Source: Escherichia coli (GTDB lineage: Bacteria > Pseudomonadota > Gammaproteobacteria > Enterobacterales > Enterobacteriaceae). Taken from it: a stretch of DNA of 64,000 nucleotides. Every line of letters starts with the position of its first letter. Positions within the stretch are counted from its first letter, which is position 1. Positions 14,574-63,133 of this stretch are shown piece after piece. The DNA lies in NCBI RefSeq assembly GCF_003018255.1, contig NZ_CP027440.1. One strand, 5' to 3'. Under the pieces are notes generated by a model. It was not told the origin of the DNA and searched no databases. It saw nothing but the letters and a program-made list of their open reading frames with translations. Position numbers and translations under genes: made by a program.

Positions 14574-15008
14574 AATTAATCATTCCTTAAACAAATGTTT
14601 AGCGGGCGACAAAGTTTACCCGTCAATACATCGAAACCCAACCTTTTTACGTTTTCATTTTTTATAGTAACTGTTTAATTTTCCTGACGCAGATGACACC
14701 ACTCTTACAGCCAAATGAATTTAGCGTTACTGGCGACCCTGGTCTTTACATTAATTATGCAAAATTTATGGATGAGTTGTTGATATGCCATTGAAATTAA
14801 GAAAGCCGTGCAGGCAAGTTTTCCATTTGCCATCTACGCTTAATTTTGAAGGTGTATCACCGGGCACGTTGTTCTCATCGTCGATAAAATGGCATGAGAG
14901 TTGCTGTGTTTTAGCAAGAGACGTCGTTCAGTTTACCTCTTCCGGGAGCCTCTACTATTCATATGAACGGCTCTTAACCTGTGCTAAAAAACGAAAGGAC
15001 GGCATACC

Positions 15009-21674: not shown

Positions 21675-22178
21675 ATGACTGAAATGGCTAAAGGAAGCGT
21701 GACGCATCAGCGGTTAATCGCTTTATTATCACAAGAAGGTGCTGACTTCCGCGTCGTTACCCATGAAGCGGTAGGTAAATGTGAAGCGGTGTCAGAAATT
21801 CGTGGCACCGCTTTAGGCCAGGGGGCTAAGGCACTGGTATGTAAAGTCAAAGGCAATGGTGTAAATCAACATGTTCTGGCGATCCTCGCGGCCGATCAAC
21901 AGGCCGATCTGAGCCAACTCGCCAGCCATATAGGCGGATTACGCGCTTCGTTGGCCAGCCCGGCGGAAGTCGATGAACTCACAGGCTGTGTCTTCGGCGC
22001 GATCCCCCCTTTCAGCTTCCATCCAAAACTCAAACTGGTTGCCGATCCCCTACTCTTCGAACGATTTGATGAAATCGCCTTCAATGCAGGCATGCTGGAT
22101 AAATCCGTTATTTTGAAAACCGCGGATTATTTGCGCATTGCGCAACCAGAACTGGTCAATTTCCGCCGCACTGCGTAA
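21675..22178 (+). CDS. yeaK: YbaK-like aminoacyl-tRNA deacylase YeaK
   Basis: 167-aa ORF of the YbaK/ProX deacylase family. Confidence 0.88.
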   Translation: MTEMAKGSVTHQRLIALLSQEGADFRVVTHEAVGKCEAVSEIRGTALGQGAKALVCKVKGNGVNQHVLAILAADQQADLSQLASHIGGLRASLASPAEVDELTGCVFGAIPPFSFHPKLKLVADPLLFERFDEIAFNAGMLDKSVILKTADYLRIAQPELVNFRRTA

Positions 22179-22283
22179 CTAGCCTGTCCGTTCGATAAGA
22201 AGAACGGACAAAACCAGCACAACAGCAATGGCAAAAAACGATGACGTGATAATCAGTGTCTCGACGAACATTTGATCGTTCAT
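22179..22283 (-). CDS. yoaI: Small membrane protein YoaI (34 aa)
   Basis: Minus-strand ATG..TAG encoding [34 protein letters not shown]; below the ORF-track size cutoff; stop abuts the yeaK stop. Confidence 0.55.
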
Positions 22284-22452
22284 AGTATGCCCCCGGGAGA
22301 TAGTTGTTTTCACGTTATTGTTAGCGTGCGCAAATGGCAGTTTGATGACAGTTCGCCTGATTTTTTATGCAAAAAACGTAAAGATTTTCTACTTCCTTCC
22401 TGCAGCAAGCGTAAAGTAAGCAGGCTTATTATTCTTTGGCAAGGAAACCACG

Positions 22453-22899
22453 ATGTTTGATGTCACTTTGCTGATCCTGCTCGGGTTAGCTGCGCTGGGC
22501 TTTATCAGTCATAACACCACTGTCGCCGTTTCAATTCTGGTGTTAATCATTGTCCGCGTCACACCGTTAAGCACCTTTTTCCCGTGGATTGAAAAACAGG
22601 GGCTAAGTATCGGGATAATCATTCTGACGATTGGCGTTATGGCTCCCATCGCCAGCGGGACGCTACCGCCCTCAACCCTGATTCACTCGTTTCTGAACTG
22701 GAAATCGCTGGTGGCAATTGCAGTCGGCGTTATTGTCTCCTGGCTGGGGGGGCGCGGCGTGACGTTAATGGGCAGCCAGCCGCAACTGGTCGCCGGGCTG
22801 CTGGTGGGCACTGTTTTGGGCGTGGCGCTGTTTCGCGGCGTACCGGTTGGCCCGCTTATTGCCGCGGGTCTGGTTTCGCTGATTGTGGGGAAACAGTAG
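22453..22899 (+). CDS. yeaL: UPF0756 inner-membrane protein YeaL
   Basis: 148-aa hydrophobic ORF. Confidence 0.88.
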
Positions 22900-23677
22900 T
22901 TAATCCCGCAATATATCGGCCTGGCGTTTGCCCCAGGCCTTTCTTAAACATAGTAATAAAGGCCGTTGTTGAATCATACCCCAGCGTATGAGCAACTTTC
23001 TGTACAGTATCGCCTTTCACTAATCCCTGAAGCGCCATAATCAGCTGTAACTGCTGACGCCACTGGCGAAAACTCACCCCCGTCTCTTTCACTATCAGTC
23101 GGGCAAGATTGCGTTCACTCATCGCAAAAAAGCGAGCCCATTGCCCCAATGACCCCCACTCGACGGGCTCTTTCGCCATCATCTCCACCATCGCGCGGAT
23201 TTTAGGATGAGAAGAAACGGGTAGGTGCAGCTGTTGTTGTGGCTGCTGAGGGAGTTCATCAAACAGGACCTGAATTAATCTGCGGGTCATCGGCTCAGCA
23301 CGCTGAGTCGTCGTCCTGTTTGCCAGGGTTAAAATTAATTCCCGGCATAAGGGCGATATTTTCAATGTGCAACAGGTTGTCGGCATTGTCACTGCGCTGG
23401 GTTCGATAAACAGAAAACAGAGTTCAGCGTTAGCTGTCACTTGATTGCTATGTTCCACCCCTCCCGGTATCCAAACCGCATATTGTGGCGGCACCATCCA
23501 CAAAGCATTTTCCACCGTACAGGTAATTGCACCATGTAGTGCCAGTATCAACTGTCCTTTGCGGTGCTGATGTACAGGACTGGTTAACTCATCCGTTCCG
23601 GCGTGAATACAAAATGCGACCGCGGCTTCATGGTGTCGGTCGGGTTCATAGCCATTGAGATTCAACCTGTGCATCAT
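22856..23677 (-). CDS. nimR: AraC-family regulator NimR (YeaM)
   Basis: 273-aa ORF with cupin-like N-terminus and C-terminal AraC HTH; 3' end overlaps yeaL by 44 nt. Confidence 0.88.
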
Positions 23678-23773
23678 TTTGTCCGAATTTAGCGATAATT
23701 TGTCATTTTAGCTTGATTCAACATAACAATAAAAACGGTAAGGTACAGCCTCGTTTGTAACAATGAGAAGCAT

Positions 23774-24955
23774 ATGACCTGTTCAACTTCATTAAGCGGC
23801 AAAAACAGGATTGTCCTTATCGCTGGCATTCTGATGATTGCCACAACATTACGCGTCACCTTTACCGGCGCAGCACCGTTACTGGATACGATTCGTTCCG
23901 CTTACTCGCTGACGACGGCGCAAACCGGCTTATTGACCACCCTGCCATTATTAGCCTTTGCGCTAATCTCACCTTTGGCTGCCCCGGTGGCGCGACGTTT
24001 TGGTATGGAACGTAGCCTGTTTGCCGCGTTACTTTTGATCTGTGCTGGTATCGCAATTCGCTCTCTCCCTTCGCCTTACTTATTATTTGGCGGTACAGCG
24101 GTCATTGGCGGTGGGATTGCATTAGGCAATGTCTTACTGCCAGGATTAATTAAACGCGATTTCCCTCATTCCGTCGCCAGACTTACCGGCGCATATTCCC
24201 TGACAATGGGAGCTGCAGCGGCACTGGGATCGACTATGGTCGTGCCGCTGGCTTTGAACGGTTTTGGCTGGCAAGGCGCGTTGCTCATGCTGATGTCTTT
24301 TCCTCTGCTGGCTCTTTTTTTATGGCTGCCACAGTGGCGAAGTCAACAACATGCAAATTTGAGTACCTCACGCGCCTTACATACTCGGGGTATCTGGCGT
24401 TCGCCGCTTGCCTGGCAGGTAACATTGTTTCTTGGGATCAACTCACTGGTCTATTACGTGATTATTGGCTGGCTTCCGGCGATTCTCATCAGTCACGGCT
24501 ATAGCGAAGCACAGGCGGGTTCACTGCATGGTTTGCTGCAACTAGCCACAGCAGCTCCCGGTTTGCTGATCCCACTTTTCTTACATCATGTGAAAGATCA
24601 GCGTGGTATTGCAGCGTTCGTTGCCTTGATGTGCGCAGTGGCCGCGGTTGGGCTCTGCTTTATGCCAGCACACGCGATCACCTGGACTCTGCTTTTCGGT
24701 TTTGGTTCCGGCGCAACAATGATACTGGGGTTGACGTTCATTGGTCTGCGGGCAAGTTCTGCGCATCAGGCGGCGGCACTCTCGGGGATGGCACAATCCG
24801 TCGGGTATTTGCTGGCAGCCTGTGGGCCGCCGCTGATGGGTAAAATACACGATGCTAACGGTGACTGGTCCGTACCACTGATGGGTGTTGCAATACTTTC
24901 ACTACTGATGGCGATTTTCGGACTTTGCGCCGGGAGAGACAAAGAAATTCGCTAA
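23774..24955 (+). CDS. nimT: MFS efflux transporter NimT (YeaN)
   Basis: 393-aa 12-TM MFS protein divergent from nimR. Confidence 0.9.
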   Translation: MTCSTSLSGKNRIVLIAGILMIATTLRVTFTGAAPLLDTIRSAYSLTTAQTGLLTTLPLLAFALISPLAAPVARRFGMERSLFAALLLICAGIAIRSLPSPYLLFGGTAVIGGGIALGNVLLPGLIKRDFPHSVARLTGAYSLTMGAAAALGSTMVVPLALNGFGWQGALLMLMSFPLLALFLWLPQWRSQQHANLSTSRALHTRGIWRSPLAWQVTLFLGINSLVYYVIIGWLPAILISHGYSEAQAGSLHGLLQLATAAPGLLIPLFLHHVKDQRGIAAFVALMCAVAAVGLCFMPAHAITWTLLFGFGSGATMILGLTFIGLRASSAHQAAALSGMAQSVGYLLAACGPPLMGKIHDANGDWSVPLMGVAILSLLMAIFGLCAGRDKEIR

Positions 24956-25009
24956 TATCCGGTGCTATAGTGACGTGGCAAATCATGCGTGAAAGGGAGA
25001 ACAAATACG

Positions 25010-25357
25010 ATGAATATTCAGTGCAAACGCGTTTATGATCCGGCTGAACAGAGCGATGGTTATCGCGTACTGGTCGACCGCCTCTGGCCACGCGGTATCA
25101 AAAAAACCGATTTAGCCCTTGATGAATGGGATAAAGAAATCACGCCGTCAACGGAACTGCGCAAAGCCTTTCACGGCGAAGTCGTCGATTTTGCAACCTT
25201 TCGCGAGCAATATCTTGCAGAACTGGCGCAACACGAGCAAGAAGGAAAGCGGCTGGCGAACATCGCCAAAAAACAGCCGCTGACCCTGCTCTACTCAGCA
25301 AAAAACACCACGCAGAACCATGCGCTGGTGCTGGCAGACTGGCTACGTAGCTTGTGA
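25010..25357 (+). CDS. yeaO: DUF488 protein YeaO
   Basis: Start at MNIQCKRVYDPAEQ gives 115 aa. Confidence 0.85.
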   Translation: MNIQCKRVYDPAEQSDGYRVLVDRLWPRGIKKTDLALDEWDKEITPSTELRKAFHGEVVDFATFREQYLAELAQHEQEGKRLANIAKKQPLTLLYSAKNTTQNHALVLADWLRSL

Positions 25358-25378
25358 TTTTAGTACGCCATCCGGCAG

Positions 25379-25633
25379 TTATTTTTCACCAGCCGGATGG
25401 TCCCGTCGCCACAATGCCCATTCATCAATCGTTTCACCGCCCGGTAATTTGCAATTGTTGCTGACCCCTTGCGCTGTCTGCACAGGAATGAGCGTCCCGC
25501 CCTTCTGCTGGCAATAGACCGACGCCGGATTTGCCATACCAATCTGCGGCGGTTTAGGTGCTTCTGGCTGAGAAGGGGTTGAACAACCAGCCAGGACCAG
25601 CAAGCAAGGCAGAACAAAACTGATAATTTTCAT
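25379..25633 (-). CDS. yoaF: DUF333 lipoprotein YoaF
   Basis: 84-aa ORF with lipobox LAGC. Confidence 0.85.
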   Translation of the reverse strand: MKIISFVLPCLLVLAGCSTPSQPEAPKPPQIGMANPASVYCQQKGGTLIPVQTAQGVSNNCKLPGGETIDEWALWRRDHPAGEK

Positions 25634-25815
25634 TTATTGATCTCACATATTTATCCAGACTTAGAGTATCGCGGTATCGTTTTGTTTTGCAGCACTATTT
25701 TTATTACATTCACTCAAATCATATTACGCCTTGTTTCATCTTTGTTGATGATGTTTTATCATGCCTGCAAAGATTAAATAATCAGCATTTACCCGCCGTA
25801 TCCTGGAGTTGTTTC

Positions 25816-26841
25816 GTGTCAGATCAGATTATCGCCCGCGTCTCGCAATCCCTTGCCAAAGAACAGTCACTGGAAAGCCTGGTCCGACAGCTTCTGGAGA
25901 TGCTGGAAATGGTCACTGATATGGAATCAACCTACCTGACCAAAGTGGATGTCGAAGCGCGCCTGCAGCATATAATGTTTGCCCGTAACAGCCAGAAAAT
26001 GCACATCCCGGAGAATTTTACCGTCTCGTGGGATTACTCGTTATGCAAACGCGCCATTGATGAAAACTGCTTTTTCAGCGATGAAGTCCCTGACCGTTGG
26101 GGCGACTGTATTGCGGCACGCAATCTTGGCATCACCACATTTCTGAGCACGCCAATTCACTTACCGGATGGATCATTCTATGGCACGCTTTGCGCCGCCA
26201 GCAGTGAGAAGCGCCAGTGGAGTGAACGCGCGGAACAGGTTTTACAGTTATTCGCCGGACTGATTGCACAATATATTCAAAAAGAGGCACTGGTTGAGCA
26301 GCTGCGCGAAGCCAATGCTGCGCTGATTGCGCAATCGTATACCGACTCGTTAACCGGGCTACCGAATCGGCGGGCGATTTTTGAAAATCTGACGACGCTG
26401 TTTTCTCTCGCCCGACATCTTAACCATAAGATAATGATCGCGTTTATCGATCTGGATAACTTCAAATTAATCAACGATCGTTTTGGTCATAATAGTGGTG
26501 ATTTGTTCCTCATTCAGGTTGGCGAGCGCCTTAATACGCTCCAGCAAAATGGCGAAGTTATTGGTCGTCTCGGCGGTGATGAGTTTTTGGTTGTTTCACT
26601 GAACAACGAGAATGCGGATATTTCGTCTCTGCGAGAACGTATTCAACAGCAAATACGTGGAGAATATCACTTAGGTGACGTTGATTTGTATTATCCCGGT
26701 GCCAGTCTTGGCATAGTAGAAGTCGATCCTGAAACGACCGATGCAGACAGTGCCCTGCATGCTGCCGATATCGCGATGTATCAGGAGAAAAAACACAAAC
26801 AGAAAACACCTTTTGTCGCGCATCCAGCGCTACATTCCTGA
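25816..26841 (+). CDS. yeaP: Diguanylate cyclase DgcP (GAF + GGDEF)
   Basis: GTG start at VSDQIIARVSQ gives 341 aa; intact RLGGDEF. Confidence 0.88.
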   Translation: MSDQIIARVSQSLAKEQSLESLVRQLLEMLEMVTDMESTYLTKVDVEARLQHIMFARNSQKMHIPENFTVSWDYSLCKRAIDENCFFSDEVPDRWGDCIAARNLGITTFLSTPIHLPDGSFYGTLCAASSEKRQWSERAEQVLQLFAGLIAQYIQKEALVEQLREANAALIAQSYTDSLTGLPNRRAIFENLTTLFSLARHLNHKIMIAFIDLDNFKLINDRFGHNSGDLFLIQVGERLNTLQQNGEVIGRLGGDEFLVVSLNNENADISSLRERIQQQIRGEYHLGDVDLYYPGASLGIVEVDPETTDADSALHAADIAMYQEKKHKQKTPFVAHPALHS

Positions 26842-26873
26842 GGCGTATTCACATCCTTTTGATTGGTGATAAC

Positions 26874-26972
26874 ATGCGAATCGGTATTATTTTTCCGGTT
26901 GTAATCTTTATTACAGCGGTCGTATTTTTAGCATGGTTTTTTATTGGCGGCTATGCTGCCCCGGGAGCATAA
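26874..26972 (+). CDS. yoaK: Small membrane protein YoaK (32 aa)
   Basis: ATG..TAA encoding MRIGIIFPVVIFITAVVFLAWFFIGGYAAPGA, 33 nt after the yeaP stop. Confidence 0.5.
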   Translation: MRIGIIFPVVIFITAVVFLAWFFIGGYAAPGA

Positions 26973-26974
26973 AG

Positions 26975-27049
26975 ATGAAAAAAACAACGATTATTATGAT
27001 GGGTGTGGCGATTATTGTCGTACTCGGCACTGAGCTGGGATGGTGGTAA
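26975..27049 (+). CDS. yoaJ: Small membrane protein YoaJ (24 aa)
   Basis: ATG..TAA encoding MKKTTIIMMGVAIIVVLGTELGWW, 2 nt after the yoaK stop. Confidence 0.5.
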   Translation: MKKTTIIMMGVAIIVVLGTELGWW

Positions 27050-27069
27050 CGTCACATCTAGAAAATAGC

Positions 27070-27094
27070 AAAGGCTGCCTGTGTGCAGCCTTTG
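27070..27094. terminator. Bidirectional hairpin terminator between yoaJ and yeaQ
   Basis: aaggctgc-ctgtgt-gcagcctt flanked by A-rich and T-rich sequence. Confidence 0.55.
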
Positions 27095-27107
27095 TGCAAT
27101 TTACGCG

Positions 27108-27356
27108 TTAACTTTTAATCTTTCTGTAGATAAACAGCACGACAATCGCGCCAATAACGGCAACCACGAAGCTGCCAAAATTGAAGCCATCGACTTTACC
27201 AAAGCCAAACAGCGTGCTGATCCATCCGCCGACTACGGCACCGACTATCCCCAGCAGGATAGTCATAAAGAATCCACCACCATCTTTACCTGGCATGATC
27301 CACTTCGCCAGAATACCGGCAATAAGCCCAAAAATAATCCATGACAGAATGCCCAT
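27108..27356 (-). CDS. yeaQ: GlsB/YeaQ/YmgE-family stress-associated membrane protein
   Basis: 82-aa Gly-rich hydrophobic ORF. Confidence 0.88.
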   Translation of the reverse strand: MGILSWIIFGLIAGILAKWIMPGKDGGGFFMTILLGIVGAVVGGWISTLFGFGKVDGFNFGSFVVAVIGAIVVLFIYRKIKS

Positions 27357-36334: not shown

Positions 36335-36360
36335 AAAAAAAACGCCGGATTAACCGGCGT
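36335..36360 (-). terminator. Rho-independent terminator of fadD
   Basis: On the minus strand: gacgccgg-ttaat-ccggcg followed by TTTTTTTT. Confidence 0.75.
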
Positions 36361-36379
36361 CTGACGACTGACTTAACGC

Positions 36380-38065
36380 TCAGGCTTTATTGTCCACTTT
36401 GCCGCGCGCTTCGTCACGTAATTCTCGTCGCAAAATTTTTCCGACGTTAGATTTCGGTAACTCATCACGAAACTCCACCAGCTTCGGTACTTTGTAGCCC
36501 GTGAGCTGACGGCGGCAAAAAGTCACCAGTGACTCTTCGGTAAGTGATGGATCTTTTTTCACAACGAAGATTTTCACCGCTTCGCCACTGGAGCCAGAAG
36601 GTACGCCAACAGCCGCGACTTCCTGTACGCCAGGATGCTGCATGACGACATCTTCAATCTCGTTGGGATAGACGTTAAAACCGGAAACCAGAATCATGTC
36701 TTTTTTACGATCGACAATACGCAGGAATCCTTCTTCATCCATCACCGCGATGTCGCCAGTGTGTAACCAGCCATTTTTGATGATTTCATCGGTAGCATCC
36801 GGACGCTGCCAGTAACCCAGCATCACCTGCGGTCCTTTGACACAAAGCTCACCTGGTTGACCCGGTGGTACTTCGTTGTCGTCGTCATCCACCAGTTTGG
36901 CTTCCGTCGACGGCACCGGCAAACCGATGCTACCACTATGATAATCAATATCATACGGGTTAACGCTGACCAGCGGCGCACACTCGGTCAGGCCATAACC
37001 TTCCAGCAGATACTGCCCTGTCAGTTTCACCCAACGTTCTGCCACCACTTGCTGAACAGGCATCCCACCGCCTGCGGAAAGGTGCAGACTGGAGAAATCC
37101 AGCTGCTGGAACTCTTTATTGTTCAGCAACGCATTGAATAAGGTGTTAACGCCAGTGATAGCGGTAAACGGATATTTCGCTAACTCTTTTACCAACCCTG
37201 GAATATCGCGCGGGTTAGTGATAAGCAGGTTCTGCCCACCCAGTTCGATAAACAGCAGGCAGTTAATGGTCAGTGCAAAAATGTGATAAAGCGGCAGCGC
37301 CGTCACCACCAGCTCTTTGCCCGGATGCAACAGCGGACCATAGGTCGCGTTAACCTGTTCCAGGTTCGCCAGCATATTGCGGTGAGTCAGCATCGCGCCT
37401 TTCGCCACACCAGTGGTACCGCCGGTGTATTGCAGGAAAGCTAAATCTTCCGGCACCAGTTCGGGTTTGACGTACTGCATCCGGTAGCCGTTGTGCAGGG
37501 CGCTACGAAATGAAATGGCATCTGGCAGATGGTATTTCGGCACCAGACGCTTGATGTATTTAACAACAAAATTGACTACCGTGCCTTTTGCCGTAGATAG
37601 CTGATCGCCCATACGGGTCAGAATTACGTGCTGAACGGCGGTTTTATCAACCACTTTTTCCAGAGTGTGGGCAAAGTTAGACACGATAACAATCGCCGAT
37701 GCGCCGCTATCGTTAAGCTGATGCTCAAGTTCACGCGGGGTATACAACGGGTTAACGTTTACGACAATCATCCCGGCACGCAAAATGCCAAACAGCGCCA
37801 CCGGATATTGCAATAAATTAGGCATCATCAACGCAACGCGATCGCCTTTCTTCAGTCCCAACCCTTGTTGCAAATAAGCGGCAAACGCGCGACTGCGTTC
37901 TTCCAGTTTGCGGAAGGTCATCACCTCCCCCATATTCACAAACGCGGGTTGATCGGCGTAGCGCGCGACCGACTGCTCAAACATATCTACCAGAGATTGA
38001 TAACGGTCAGGGTTGATCTCCGTCGGAACGTCCGCGGGATAACGGTTAAGCCAAACCTTCTTCAA
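36380..38065 (-). CDS. fadD: Long-chain fatty acid-CoA ligase FadD
   Basis: TTG start at [14 protein letters not shown] gives 561 aa; AMP-binding motifs. Confidence 0.93.
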
Positions 38066-48345: not shown

Positions 48346-49902
48346 TTACTCATCTTCATCGTGCACCGGTTGCTCTTTAACAATGCGAACCAGATCAACA
48401 CGATAATCATTGGCTTCAATGATGGTGATATGCAGTGGCCCTACATCAATCACATCGCCCACACGGGGAATGTGACCATTTGCCGAGATCACGAGGCCCG
48501 CGACCGTCGCGATATCATCGTCATCGGCAAGGTGCTCAACATCAAGCGCCTGCTGCAAGGCATGCAAATCTGTACCGCCTTTTACCAGCCAGCCGTCACC
48601 ATCGGTAATGATTTCCGGCGTTTCGTCTGCGTCCGGGAATTCACCCGCAATGGCTTCCAGCACATCCAGCGGCGTGACCAGACCTTGTACCACACCAAAC
48701 TCGTTGGTCACGATAACAAAGCTCCCGCGAGCACGACGCAGCACGCCCAGCAGGTTGATCGGGTCAAGGGTTTCCGGAACGATAATTGCCGGAGACGCCG
48801 AAGCTATCGCCGCCACATCAACGCCCTCTTCCAGCGCCACCAGCAGTTCTTTAGCACGTACGATACCGATGATTTCATCCAGTTCACCGCGACATACCGG
48901 GAACAGACTGTGCGGTGAGGAGAGCAGCTGCTCGCGGATTTCATCGACCCCGAGATTAGCGTCAACCCAGCTTATTTCACCGCGCGGCGTCATGATCCCG
49001 CGCAGAGAACGCGACGCCAGCGTCAATACGCCGTTAATCATGTAACGTTCTTCTTCGGCAAACGCACCTTCCGGGATCGGCATCGGCATCGGGTTATCGG
49101 CATCGTGCTGAACATTGGCCTGACGTTTCCCGCCCATCAAACGCAGGATGGCATCGGCAGTACGCGCACGCAGCGGCAAAGTCGACTGGTGACGAATAAA
49201 GTTGCGACGCGCAATCTGGTTAAACACTTCGATGATGATCGAGAAGCCAATCGCGGCATACAGGTAACCTTTCGGAATGTGGAAACCGAAACCTTCTGCC
49301 ACCAGACTCAGACCTATCATTAACAGGAAGCTCAGACAGAGCACCACCACCGTTGGATGCTGGTTAACAAATCGCGTCAGCGGTTTCGATGCCAGCAGCA
49401 TAACCGCCATCGCAATCACTACCGCCGCCATCATCACCGGCAGATGGTTAACCATCCCTACTGCCGTAATTACCGCATCCAATGAGAAGACGGCGTCAAG
49501 GATGACAATCTGTGTGACGACCACCCAGAAACTGGCGTAGCCTTTACCGTGGCCGGAATCATGATCGCGGTTTTCCAGCCGTTCATGCAGTTCGGTTGTT
49601 GCTTTGAACAGCAAGAATATCCCCCCGAACAACATAATCAGGTCGCGTCCGGAGAAGGAGAAATCCATGACGGTAAATAGCGGTTTGGTCAGCGTGACCA
49701 TCCATGAAATCAGCGACAGCAGCCCCAGACGCATAATCAGCGCCAGTGATAATCCCAGCAAACGCGCTTTATCGCGTTGTTTTGGCGGCAGTTTGTCAGC
49801 AAGAATGGCGATGAAGACCAGGTTATCGATACCCAGCACAATTTCGAGAACAACAAGCGTGAGTAGCCCCGCCCAAATTGAGGGGTCCATTAAGAATTCC
49901 AT
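48346..49902 (-). CDS. yoaE: TerC + CBS/CorC-domain membrane protein YoaE
   Basis: 518-aa ORF. Confidence 0.9.
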
Positions 49903-50194
49903 GACAAGCTCCTGCTTAAGGAATAGCTATTCGACGCCAGAAATAATGCAGGCGTAACGACAAAATGCAAACGAAAGGTGCGGCATAGAGTGCCAGAAAG
50001 ACAGGCGTTAAAAGGCCTGATGCTGAAATGACGTCGGTGACGATCCATACTGCGGGCTACTGCCCTATACTCCATGGTTGTTAAACGGGAGTTAAACATA
50101 TCAGAGACGCCTCTGATTTGGCAAAGATTTACCTTCCTTTGCAAACGAATGTGACAAGGATATTTTACCTTTCGAAATTTCTGCTAATCGAAAG

Positions 50195-53764: not shown

Positions 53765-53900
53765 GTTAAGGTTGCGCCCTCATTTGGGGAGTAGCCGATT
53801 TCCAGATTCCGGAAATGTACGTGTCAACATACTCGTTGCAAAACGTGGCACGTACGGACTGAACACTTTCAGTCAGGCGAGACCATATGCACATCAATCG
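53765..53900 (+). ncRNA. yybP-ykoY-type manganese riboswitch in the mntP leader
   Basis: Contains UUUGGGGAGUAG and GGCGAGACCA-like segments typical of the yybP-ykoY motif within the 5' leader of mntP. Confidence 0.55.
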
Positions 53901-54004
53901 CTATGCCTGCATGAACGCGAAAACCATCGCGGTTTGTCGTTCATGTATGCATGTTTGCTGGGGGCGATGATGTGTTTTATGGATACCCCGGTCAGGACGT
54001 TGTC

Positions 54005-54571
54005 ATGAATATCACTGCTACTATTCTTCTTGCGTTTGGTATGTCGATGGATGCATTTGCTGCATCAATCGGTAAAGGTGCCACCCTCCATAAACCGAAA
54101 TTTTCTGAAGCGTTGCGAACCGGCCTTATTTTTGGTGCTGTCGAAACCCTGACGCCGCTGATCGGCTGGGGAATGGGCATGTTAGCCAGCCGGTTTGTCC
54201 TTGAATGGAACCACTGGATTGCGTTTGTGCTGCTGATATTCCTCGGCGGGCGAATGATTATTGAGGGTTTTCGTGGCGCAGATGATGAAGATGAAGAGCC
54301 GCGCCGTCGACACGGTTTCTGGCTACTGGTAACCACCGCGATTGCCACCAGCCTGGATGCCATGGCTGTGGGTGTTGGTCTTGCTTTCCTTCAGGTCAAC
54401 ATTATCGCGACCGCATTGGCCATTGGTTGTGCAACCTTGATTATGTCGACATTAGGGATGATGGTTGGTCGCTTTATCGGCTCAATTATTGGGAAAAAAG
54501 CGGAAATTCTCGGCGGGCTGGTGCTGATCGGCATCGGCGTCCAGATCCTCTGGACGCACTTCCACGGTTAA
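54005..54571 (+). CDS. mntP: Manganese efflux pump MntP
   Basis: Start at [19 protein letters not shown] gives 188 aa. Confidence 0.9.
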
Positions 54572-55377: not shown

Positions 55378-55470
55378 GACAACTCCGGCAGGATACTAAA
55401 GGCCGCAAGTGTAACGCGAATCACGCGGCGGGCAAATATCCGAACGACTGGAGCGAAGATAAAGCAAAGT

Positions 55471-55497
55471 AAAAAGCCTCGCATTCGACGAGGCTTT
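55471..55497 (-). terminator. Rho-independent terminator of cspC
   Basis: On the minus strand: agcctcg-tcgaatg-cgaggct followed by TTTTT. Confidence 0.75.
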
Positions 55498-55542
55498 ATA
55501 GCGAGATTGAAGCGTATTCACACTTCAGATCAGTGGATTCGA

Positions 55543-55752
55543 TCAGATAGCTGTTACGTTAACAGCTGCCGGACCTTTCTGACCGTCCTGAATTTCGAAC
55601 TCAACGTTCTGACCTTCAGCCAGAGTTTTGAAACCATTACCCTGGATAGCAGAGAAGTGTACGAACACGTCTTTGCTGCCATCAGCCGGAGTAATGAAGC
55701 CAAAACCTTTAGACTCGTTGAACCACTTAACCTGACCTTTAATCTTTGCCAT
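55543..55752 (-). CDS. cspC: Cold-shock-domain protein CspC
   Basis: 69-aa ORF with RNP motifs KGFGFI and VFVHF. Confidence 0.95.
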
Positions 55753-55764
55753 TTGAAAAATTCC

Positions 55765-55908
55765 TTAGATTGTTTTCTTCGCCCGCAGGCATAACATAGA
55801 TAAAACTGACACATTACTGCATGAGGCACCAATATAAGGCTCGGCAGAGAAGCGGTATTCAACGTCAACGTGTTTACTCAGGACTTCTTTACTGAAAATG
55901 CCACACAT
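55765..55908 (-). CDS. yobF: Small protein YobF (47 aa)
   Basis: Minus-strand ATG..TAA encoding [47 protein letters not shown], 12 nt upstream of cspC. Confidence 0.7.
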
Positions 55909-56534
55909 AAACAGAACTGTACCTCGTTTAACCCGAAATCTGTTATCACATACAACGTTAATTATGGCAAGCCATTTTTAAACATGTCTCGATCAGACGC
56001 ACAAATCTCGATACGTCTTCCACTTTTTTTGCACACTTATGCAACGGAATACGCGCCGATATATCATTGTGCTTAACCTTGCCAGTTCAGGCAGATACTT
56101 AAACTGACGTATTTTCTAACATAGTTCAATAAGTTCAGTTGTTCCAGGCCAGTGGGAGAAGTTATTACATAGTGCGTGCAATATCACATTTTCTGCTATG
56201 CAATGAATAAAAAGTTATATCACTTTTTCTCATAAAACAGTCAGTTAACGGCTATCGATCACCCCAAAGAGAAGTCAATCGCCAAAGGTATTGTAAATTT
56301 AAAATAAGAAAAATTGATGAATGCGCAAAAAAATCAAGAGAGAAACGTTTCGCTAATAAATAATACCACGCTTAATCACAAATCCGATGTAAACATCCTA
56401 ATAAATTAATGGGCTAAATATCTTTTTCTGATATCCCGTTACGCAAATAAATAATATGATAATTATTTGAAGTCAGACCAGAGTTTTAATTTGAAGCAGT
56501 TGCACCATGACAGTGCGTATAATCAGGATGAATT

Positions 56535-60893: not shown

Positions 60894-61047
60894 AATTTTC
60901 TTTTTACCTCAGTTTAACAAAACGCAATATGCGATACCCACATCGTATGGGTTACGCGACTATTTTCAAGTCTGGATAGTGCGTAAGTCACCAGAAAGAC
61001 ACAACTTTACATTTTGTAGCATCTGATTTACGGCATCTTGCCGCTGT

Positions 61048-61080
61048 TAAAAAATCAGGCACAATTTCTTGTGCCTGATT
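61048..61080 (-). terminator. Rho-independent terminator of prc
   Basis: On the minus strand: aatcaggcac-aagaaatt-gtgcctgatt followed by TTTTT. Confidence 0.7.
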
Positions 61081-61084
61081 GATA

Positions 61085-63133
61085 TTACTTGACGGGAGCG
61101 GGTTGTTCCGCGGGTCTGGCTTTTTCAAGCTTCGCCAGATCGAGTGCGATATTCACCGTCTCATCCAGATAAGGATCCGGCTCCTGGTAATCTTTCGGTA
61201 GATCATCCAGTTTCTTCAACTCCGGTTTACCTTCGCGCTTAAAGCGTTCGTTCAAACGCGCCAGACGCGTCGCATCATCTTCATTATTCTCTTTCTCACG
61301 CACAGCGTAATTCAGAGAAACGATATTGCGCTTGTCCTTCATAGCGTTGAAGCGCGCGATATCCTTCATGATGTTCTGGAACTCTGGATCTTTCGCGATA
61401 CGCGCATTATGTTCCTTCAGCAGCTCCGGTCCAAAGGCCGTCAAATCTCCCGATTTCACATAGGTCGCGGCATCGATGCTATCCCACGGCAGCGCGTTAT
61501 CTTCGAATTTCTCACCGGTTTCCGTTTCTTCATTACCCGTCGGCATGATGATGTCTGGCGTTACGCCTTTACGTTGCGTACTGCCGCCGTTAACGCGATA
61601 GAATTTCTGGATCGTGTACTGCACAGAACCCAGCGCTGGCCATTCAGGACGTAACATCTGATCGTAGATACGGTTCAATGAACGGTATTGCTGAACGGTG
61701 CCTTTACCAAACGTCGGTTCACCCACAACCAGCGCACGACCGTAATCCTGCATTGCCGCGGCAAAGATTTCTGAAGCCGAAGCACTGAAGCGGTCAACCA
61801 GCACCACCAGCGGGCCTTTATAGAAAACCTGCCCATCGGTATCGCTGTCTTCACGAACTTTACCGTTGTTATCACGGACCTGAACAATCGGACCGGATGG
61901 AATGAACAGACCGGAGAGCGATACCGCTTCGGTCAACGCCCCACCGCCATTGCTACGCAGGTCGATGATGACACTGCTGACATTCTGTTTTTCCAGTTTC
62001 TGCAACTGCACTTTGACATCGTCTGTCAAACCCACATAGAAACCTGGAATATCCAGAACGCCGACTTTCTCTTTACCGACGGTCTTCACCGACATTTTAA
62101 CCGCACGGTCTTCGAGGCGAATACGTTCACGGGTCAACGTTACAGTACGGGTCTTGGTCCCTTTACCAGCAGGTAAAATTTCCAGACGAACTTTACTGCC
62201 CTTCGGCCCTTTAATTAAGGCAACCACATCATCAAGACGCCAGCCAATCACGTCAACCATCGGCTTGCCTGTTTGACCAACACCGACAATTTTGTCACCA
62301 ACGCTGATAGCTTTACTCTTCGCTGCCGGACCACCTGCCACCATCGAATTGATAACGGTGTAGTCATCATCCATTTGCAGAACTGCGCCAATACCTTCCA
62401 GCGACAAACTCATTTCAGTGTTGAACTGTTCGGTATTACGCGGGGAAAGATAGTTGGTATGCGGGTCGATTTCACGCGCAAACGCCGTCATTGCCAGCGA
62501 GAAAACATCTTCGCTGTTGGTTTGCGCCAGACGACGAATGGCAAATTTGTAGCGGCGAGTCAGGGTTTCACGAATTTCTTTATCCGTTTTTCCTGCCAGC
62601 TTCAGGCTTAACTCGTCGAATTTGACTTTACTGTCCCACAGCGCGTTCAACTCAGCCTCGTTTTTCGGCCAGGGCGCTTTGCTGCGGTCAAGGTTATAAG
62701 TGTCGTTGCCGGTGAAATCCATCGGCTTTTCCAGTACCGACAAAGCGTACTGGTAACGTTCAAAACGACGCTTTTGCGCCAGATTGTAGAGATCGTAGAA
62801 AACGTCGAGTTTGCCTGAACGCAGTTCATCGCCTAACTCGGTTTTCTTTTTCGCGAACTGTTCAACATCGCTTGCCAGCAGCACGTTGTGGCTGTAATCG
62901 AGCAGATTCAGATAGCGGTCAAAGATTTTGGCCGAAAATGCCTGATCGAGGTCGAACTGGCGATAATGAGAACGGGTGAAGCGCGACGTTACGCGCTCAC
63001 TCACCGTCGCATGCTGCGTCTCTTCCTTTAATACCGGAATTTGATCAGCACGCGTGATATCTTCTACAGCGAAGGTCTGGCCTGCTATTGCAAGCAGGCC
63101 AGCTAACGCGGTAAGCCTAAAAAACATGTTCAT
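61085..63133 (-). CDS. prc: Tail-specific periplasmic protease Prc
   Basis: Start at MNMFFRLTALAGLLAIAGQTFA gives 682 aa. Confidence 0.95.
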   Translation of the reverse strand: MNMFFRLTALAGLLAIAGQTFAVEDITRADQIPVLKEETQHATVSERVTSRFTRSHYRQFDLDQAFSAKIFDRYLNLLDYSHNVLLASDVEQFAKKKTELGDELRSGKLDVFYDLYNLAQKRRFERYQYALSVLEKPMDFTGNDTYNLDRSKAPWPKNEAELNALWDSKVKFDELSLKLAGKTDKEIRETLTRRYKFAIRRLAQTNSEDVFSLAMTAFAREIDPHTNYLSPRNTEQFNTEMSLSLEGIGAVLQMDDDYTVINSMVAGGPAAKSKAISVGDKIVGVGQTGKPMVDVIGWRLDDVVALIKGPKGSKVRLEILPAGKGTKTRTVTLTRERIRLEDRAVKMSVKTVGKEKVGVLDIPGFYVGLTDDVKVQLQKLEKQNVSSVIIDLRSNGGGALTEAVSLSGLFIPSGPIVQVRDNNGKVREDSDTDGQVFYKGPLVVLVDRFSASASEIFAAAMQDYGRALVVGEPTFGKGTVQQYRSLNRIYDQMLRPEWPALGSVQYTIQKFYRVNGGSTQRKGVTPDIIMPTGNEETETGEKFEDNALPWDSIDAATYVKSGDLTAFGPELLKEHNARIAKDPEFQNIMKDIARFNAMKDKRNIVSLNYAVREKENNEDDATRLARLNERFKREGKPELKKLDDLPKDYQEPDPYLDETVNIALDLAKLEKARPAEQPAPVK

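Follow-up and report, generated by a model that had tools for sequence, protein, structure and literature searches.

Are the six very short open reading frames (ORFs) that occupy tight gaps in this part of the Escherichia coli chromosome genuine genes, or frames that have arisen by chance? The stretch analyzed here (64,000 nucleotides of contig NZ_CP027440.1, referred to as the window) is E. coli chromosome equivalent to the gdhA-proQ region of K-12, and the frames in question are those of yoaI, yoaK, yoaJ, yoaH, yobF, and mgrB. We conclude, with a probability of about 0.95, that all six are genuine, already catalogued E. coli small-protein genes, each translated from a Shine-Dalgarno site of its own. 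All were known before, and no unannotated gene is among the six. The frames, ribosome-binding sites, family membership, selection, synteny, and the Pho box described below were computed here; translation, membrane localization, and the interactions with EnvZ and PhoQ are taken from the literature. The six genes and two neighbors that define their setting are as follows.

22179-22283, minus strand: yoaI, 34 amino acids (aa), ATG to TAG
26874-26972, plus strand: yoaK, 32 aa
26975-27049, plus strand: yoaJ, 24 aa
42869-43048, minus strand: yoaH, 59 aa
55765-55908, minus strand: yobF, 47 aa
56940-57083, minus strand: mgrB, 47 aa, GTG start
21675-22178, plus strand: yeaK, stop codon at 22176-22178
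25816-26841, plus strand: dgcP (yeaP), stop codon ending at 26841

An earlier reading of the letters, made without database searches (the sequence-only reading), had picked out these six ORFs of 24-59 aa with plausible starts and stops, and its coordinates, strands, and lengths are all correct. The arrangement that it described is also accurate: the yoaI stop (22179-22181) abuts the yeaK stop with a gap of 0 nt, and yoaK and yoaJ stand in tandem after yeaP, separated by the 2-nt spacer "ag", with yoaK beginning 32 nt past the dgcP stop. Its gene names hold as well, each peptide scoring above the cut-off of its family model, and both the K-12 MG1655 annotation and the Prokaryotic Genome Annotation Pipeline (PGAP) placing genes in exactly these frames. 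The K-12 loci are b1788 (yoaI), b4676 (yoaK), b4675 (yoaJ), b1811 (yoaH), b1824 (yobF), and b1826 (mgrB). At least 5403 of the 5426 complete E. coli genomes carry the sequences; the segment 22000-27200, which carries yoaI, yoaK, and yoaJ, was matched in 5420 of the 5426, with 100% identity to strain JNE23-011.

ORFs of 24-59 aa number 610 in the window (756 for 20-59 aa), and 26 of the 610 have a transmembrane (TM)-like hydrophobic stretch. In their bare status as ORFs, the six genes thus show no excess over chance; an ORF alone proves nothing, and the case rests on other evidence. What rises above chance is ribosome-binding sites, family-model matches, and cross-genus conservation, rather than the ORFs themselves. 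Shine-Dalgarno strength was scored as the predicted duplex energy between positions -18 to -3 and the 3' end of 16S rRNA, with 609 short window ORFs as background. The six genes gave -6.6 to -8.6 kcal/mol, which places all of them in the top 2-8% of short ORFs and bears out the ribosome-binding-site check that the sequence-only reading had proposed; 63-87% of the orthologues lie beyond the 10th percentile of the background. All six peptides exceed curated NCBIfam or Pfam cut-offs, and the NCBIfam equivalogs for YoaI, YoaK, YoaJ, YoaH, and MgrB were matched end to end. A screen of the mostly intergenic short window ORFs with a TM-like segment returned, beyond yoaI, yoaK, yoaJ, and mgrB, candidates without a ribosome-binding site; frames such as 25637-25777 (plus strand) and 14715-14783 (plus strand) were set aside as further missed genes on this ground. 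Among these intergenic hydrophobic frames, a ribosome-binding site and conservation were combined only in known genes.

Conservation was assessed in 80 species-level Enterobacteriaceae loci collected via the neighboring gene yeaL, and thus independently of the small ORFs, in which orthologues were found by tblastn. yoaI was detected in 43 of the 80 loci, yoaK in 45, and yoaJ in 52, the genera including Escherichia, Citrobacter, Salmonella, Enterobacter, Lelliottia, Leclercia, Kluyvera, Raoultella, Trabulsiella, Kosakonia, Phytobacter, Cedecea, Buttiauxella, and others. Most of the differences fall at the third codon position: mean pairwise differences at positions 1/2/3 were 0.35/0.19/0.57 for yoaI, 0.21/0.05/0.51 for yoaK, and 0.27/0.16/0.54 for yoaJ. 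The pooled ratio of nonsynonymous to synonymous change (pN/pS) in the annotated frame was 0.42, 0.16, and 0.34, respectively, compared with 0.97-3.0 for the same DNA read in shifted frames. This pattern points to purifying selection in frame on yoaI, yoaK, and yoaJ, and the conservation across enterobacteria on which the earlier reading had made its claim depend is thus borne out by orthologues with pN/pS below 1.

Between yeaL and yeaO, the loci of E. coli and Citrobacter also carry nimR-nimT (2-nitroimidazole regulator and exporter), a pair that is absent in five loci from E. albertii, E. whittamii, and the cryptic Escherichia clades (L005 and L007-L010).

YoaI matches NCBIfam NF041475 with 79.8 bits (cut-off 45), aligned over residues 1-34 of 34, and has a single TM helix with a best 19-aa hydropathy of 2.72. 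Glu31 is present, and among the orthologues listed this position is always acidic (E, or D in 2 loci). Upstream of the gene, the following elements were located.

22290-22294, minus strand: yoaI Shine-Dalgarno element GGGGG, 6 nt before the ATG
22351-22334, minus strand: Pho box CTGTCATCAAACTGCCAT, 68 nt upstream of the ATG, matching 13 of 14 consensus positions
22317-22323, minus strand: putative -10 element TAACAAT, 10 nt downstream of the Pho box

The Shine-Dalgarno duplex of -8.6 kcal/mol is in the top 2% of the 609 short ORFs, and 87% of the yoaI orthologues have values past the 10th percentile of the background. In each of the 44 yoaI loci, the best-matching upstream sequence is an equivalent Pho box; its distance from the assigned start is 51-87 nt overall and 61-76 nt in 41 loci. 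Scores of 10-14 out of 14 were obtained in 43 loci, and a score of 12 was reached by none of 2200 shuffles. The same 18-mer is the PhoB site of yoaI in chromatin immunoprecipitation sequencing (ChIP-seq), and the yoaI RNA level is 12,266 in the wild type vs. 28 in a phoB deletion, a difference of ~440-fold (PMC10294691). The motif TA[AT]CAAT is kept in the Escherichia and Citrobacter yoaI loci. A sigma-70 consensus scan upstream of yoaI gave no -35/-10 pair and no -35 match, as would be expected for an activator-dependent promoter; the assignment of the -10 element is putative.

In the mechanism that we propose, yoaI is a PhoB-activated gene, with the Pho box standing in for the promoter -35 element. 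YoaI, as a 34-aa single-pass inner-membrane protein, would then bind and stimulate the sensor kinase EnvZ, and phosphate and Mg2+ limitation would in this way be linked to OmpR output. Published experiments speak to several of these steps: YoaI has a Ribo-RET initiation peak; chromosomally tagged YoaI, carrying a sequential peptide affinity (SPA) tag, is found in the membrane fraction and is up at low Mg2+; YoaI and EnvZ interact in a two-hybrid assay, and the activity of an omrB reporter is yoaI-dependent; and the EnvZ interaction is lost in E31A/Q mutants (10.1101/2024.09.13.612970). Compared with K-12 YoaI (b1788), the window protein has the same length, a full-length match to the hidden Markov model (HMM), one TM helix, and Glu31, with a Pho box identical to the ChIP site and the same tail-to-tail position after yeaK. 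We see no substantive difference, EnvZ activation being known from the literature for the K-12 protein. At the nucleotide level, the yoaI allele of the window is a minority one: the 182-nt region 22179-22360, which includes the promoter, reaches 99% identity or more in just 148 of 5411 genomes.

YoaK (MRIGIIFPVVIFITAVVFLAWFFIGGYAAPGA) has one TM helix (hydropathy 2.79) and matches NCBIfam NF033821 with 69.1 bits (cut-off 32); YoaJ (MKKTTIIMMGVAIIVVLGTELGWW) likewise has one TM helix (1.95) and matches NF011343 with 60.4 bits (cut-off 54). The elements around the pair are as follows.

26865-26870, plus strand: yoaK Shine-Dalgarno element GGTGAT
26963-26967, plus strand: yoaJ Shine-Dalgarno element GGGAG, inside the last yoaK codons (Pro-Gly-Ala)
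27069-27094, no strand assigned: GC-rich hairpin between the convergent yoaJ and yeaQ, 10-bp stem with 6 GC pairs

The yoaK Shine-Dalgarno duplex (-8.1 kcal/mol, top 3.3% of short ORFs) has AGGTGA and GGTGG variants kept upstream of its orthologues, and for yoaJ (-6.6 kcal/mol, top 7.6%) the pattern CC(N)GG(R)G is conserved among the tandem loci listed. yoaK and yoaJ occur together in 45 loci, yoaJ alone in 8, and yoaK alone in 1; each of the 53 yoaJ copies encodes 24 aa. The distance from the yoaK stop to the yoaJ start is -4, -1, 0, +2, or +3 nt in 44 of the 45 pairs. This geometry is typical of translational coupling, and with the yoaJ ribosome-binding site located within the last yoaK codons, both peptides are probably made in this way. 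In one locus (L027, 11726-11914, Citrobacter amalonaticus AUH_CA_2023_1), yoaK is 62 codons long and runs into yoaJ through a lost stop or a shifted frame; this long yoaK may be genuine or may reflect faulty assembly.

We read yoaK and yoaJ as the last two cistrons of a dgcP(yeaP)-yoaK-yoaJ transcript that would end at the hairpin shared with yeaQ. The pair usually sits after dgcP and before yeaQ, and RNA-seq-based operon calling in K-12 gave a single yeaP-yoaK-yoaJ unit (PMC4620388). The hairpin was called a terminator on the minus strand (the yeaQ side) and is probably the shared terminator of yoaJ and yeaQ, as judged from its structure and position. A sigma-70-like match at 26848-26875 was rejected as a yoaK-yoaJ promoter: it extends onto the yoaK start codon, and with 2 such matches vs. 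1.5 expected, their count is at the level of chance.

Both small proteins have been studied experimentally. YoaK and YoaJ were found by comparative genomics and models of ribosome-binding sites (Hemm et al. 2008, as cited in later papers). Chromosomally tagged YoaK was detected (10.1101/511675); YoaJ is integrally membrane-associated with an N-in/C-out topology (PMC4597795); and both are cleaved in vitro by the intramembrane protease RseP (PMC10470546). The window pair does not differ from that of K-12 (b4676, b4675), sharing its gene order, 2-nt spacer, Shine-Dalgarno elements, and annotation. It is also nearly invariant within E. coli, with 5200 of 5416 genomes matching the 201-nt segment 26860-27060 at 99% identity or more. 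Like mgtS-mgtT, yoaK-yoaJ consists of adjacent small ORFs whose stop and start overlap or lie a few nucleotides apart (10.1101/2024.09.13.612970, 10.1101/511675). In yoaK-yoaJ, the downstream ribosome-binding site is inside the upstream ORF, the sequence is unrelated to that of mgtS and mgtT, and the coupling is a prediction. The conserved geometry and co-occurrence also bear on a more speculative proposal, which we put forward tentatively and consider rather doubtful: YoaK and YoaJ might be an obligate coupled two-peptide membrane module. yoaJ would then be read mainly by ribosomes terminating on yoaK, the helices would be hetero-oligomeric, and the invariant Pro-Gly at the C-terminus of YoaK would be doubly constrained, at the peptide level and by the need for a yoaJ Shine-Dalgarno element.

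Several observations weigh against the picture given so far. Because the orthologues were gathered by peptide similarity with tblastn, pN tends to be underestimated; this bias is lessened, though not removed, by synteny and the shifted-frame controls, which argue that the signal is real. Near yeaL, yoaI was not found in loci of the Citrobacter freundii group, and yoaI, yoaK, and yoaJ were all not found in several Klebsiella and Raoultella loci, so that in these lineages the genes are dispensable or have moved. The yoaK-yoaJ pair is kept without a detected dgcP homologue in Salmonella, some C. amalonaticus, Trabulsiella guamensis, and a Raoultella species, and co-transcription with dgcP therefore cannot be its sole mode of expression; a search for a promoter of its own found none that was convincing. 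The plus-strand T run after the hairpin at 27069-27094 is weaker.

How far do other explanations account for the same observations? That all six are chance intergenic ORFs without functional peptides, kept by annotation tradition, is hardly conceivable. Short hydrophobic ORFs do arise by chance, as the 610 frames of this size in the window and the 26 among them with a TM-like stretch illustrate, and YoaI was undetected for years in standard media. Yet purifying selection acts in frame while the shifted-frame controls lie at or above neutrality, the start and length of the ORFs are kept across at least 10 genera, the Shine-Dalgarno elements are strong and conserved, and the curated family models are passed; together with published translation, tagging, and phenotype data, this means that the explanation is effectively refuted already. 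For yoaK and yoaJ specifically, the act of translating rather than the peptides could matter, for instance for stability or termination at the 3' end of the dgcP mRNA. Amino-acid-level conservation along the whole of both peptides (pN/pS 0.16 and 0.34), the accumulation and membrane insertion of the proteins, and the retention of the pair without dgcP in Salmonella, C. amalonaticus, and T. guamensis make this very improbable, even with the two ORFs lying 32 nt past dgcP on one transcription unit, the yoaJ Shine-Dalgarno element constraining the last YoaK codons, and neither peptide having a known phenotype or partner.

The abutment of yoaI on yeaK allows a further interpretation, in which PhoB-driven yoaI transcription serves mainly as antisense or convergent interference on yeaK and the peptide is secondary. 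yeaK was detected in 40 of the 44 yoaI loci; yoaI lies tail-to-tail with it in all 40, with a gap of 0-37 nt in 38 and of 0 nt in the window, where a search for a terminator-like structure between the two genes found none. Given the very strong PhoB induction of the yoaI RNA (12,266 vs. 28), antisense read-through into yeaK is plausible. As the principal role of the locus, interference is nonetheless improbable: the YoaI peptide sequence is under selection with Glu31 conserved, plasmid-expressed YoaI activates EnvZ-dependent reporters, and the E31A/Q substitutions abolish the interaction. An antisense effect on yeaK could coexist with a functional peptide, yet cannot be the main explanation of the yoaI ORF. 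We thus retain the reading of all six frames as genuine small-protein genes.

The three genes elsewhere in the window fit the same reading. MgrB matches Pfam PF13998 with 66.3 bits and NCBIfam NF007635 with 89.9 bits (cut-off 40), and consists of one TM helix followed by a periplasmic tail with Cys28 and Cys39, which we take to be the functional cysteines. K-12 b1826 is annotated "PhoQ kinase inhibitor", and mgrB encodes the known PhoP-induced feedback inhibitor of the sensor kinase PhoQ. In comparison with known MgrB (PF13998), the length of 47 aa, the TM helix with its Cys-containing periplasmic tail, and the full model match show no difference. Upstream of mgrB lies a PhoP-box-like sequence TAGTTAGGCGCTGTTTA (57150-57134, minus strand) with 2 mismatches, which alone is not above chance, there being 31 such matches in the window vs. 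16 expected. MgrB served as the positive control in the YoaI study (10.1101/2024.09.13.612970).

YobF scores 105 bits against Pfam PF10736 (DUF2627; gathering score 25), and its gene lies 12 nt upstream of cspC on the same strand, as the upstream cistron of the yobF-cspC transcript. Translation of yobF has been reported, and its deletion leads to a growth defect specific to low Mg2+ that is complemented by the protein, not by a start-codon mutant (10.1101/2024.09.13.612970). The Rfam model of the cspA thermoregulator (RF01766) gives 139.7 bits at 55468-55928 (minus strand), spanning cspC and the whole of yobF, and the yobF ORF is therefore located in a region that aligns to a long csp-type 5' leader; this alignment may be related to the reported post-transcriptional heat induction of YobF. 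YoaH matches Pfam PF03701 (UPF0181) with 100.9 bits (cut-off 23.5) and NCBIfam NF003476 with 114.2 bits (cut-off 72), and is a soluble, hydrophilic UPF0181 protein.

Two labels of the sequence-only reading hold in part. It had called all of these products small membrane proteins, a description that suits YoaI, YoaK, YoaJ, and MgrB (best 19-aa hydropathy 1.95-2.79) and not YoaH (0.81, with a grand average of hydropathy of -0.47 and no TM-like segment); for YobF the signal is weak (1.15), and His-tagged YobF has been reported to fractionate with membranes (10.1101/2024.09.13.612970). It had also called the genes missed. This is true of a six-frame track with a floor of 60 aa, below which all six fall, and untrue of real pipelines: among RefSeq genomes sampled evenly down the hit ranking, PGAP annotates yoaI in 25 of 25 and yoaK and yoaJ in 24 of 25, the sole exception being a truncated match. 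The translation evidence that it had asked for exists in the form of published Ribo-RET and SPA-tagging results (10.1101/2024.09.13.612970, 10.1101/511675). With a floor of 60 aa, an ORF track conceals real genes, among them those of two signaling regulators, the PhoQ inhibitor MgrB and the EnvZ activator YoaI; small-protein HMMs, which PGAP already uses, should therefore be included in downstream steps. Beyond such quality control, the finding matters little.

Examination of the remaining window gave several minor observations. Outside the 5.2-kb segment, the window differs from strain JNE23-011 and shows 1-nt offsets; an IS200C copy that this strain carries between htpX and prc is absent in the window (60894-61085), which therefore does not derive from JNE23-011 even though the two are identical over 22000-27200. 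In the interval between an aptamer of the Mn2+ (yybP-ykoY) riboswitch and mntP, PGAP annotates a 40-aa "hypothetical protein" in JNE23-011 with no K-12 counterpart; at the corresponding position (53887-54009, plus strand) the frame is broken in the window, the match being split into two pieces in different frames, and the call is probably spurious. The aptamer itself (53778-53874, plus strand) scores 41.9 bits, below the Rfam gathering score of 45, and was therefore unseen in a whole-window scan at gathering scores.

An upstream ORF outside the earlier list, yoaL (52 aa, 49890-50048, minus strand; K-12 b4751), overlaps the yoaE start by 13 nt, and its product matches Pfam PF22867 with 138 bits. 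A stop codon introduced into yoaL strongly reduces expression of a yoaE-lacZ fusion (10.1101/511675). Lying 34-50 nt upstream of the yoaL/yoaE start is a PhoP-box-like direct repeat, TGTTTAACTCCCGTTTA (50082-50098, minus strand), with 1 mismatch and one of three such matches in the window; it could be due to chance, or could provide PhoP input to yoaE, a gene of the CNNM/TerC family. The small RNA gene sroD (RF00370, 115 bits) lies at 36336-36421 on the minus strand, between rnd and fadD.

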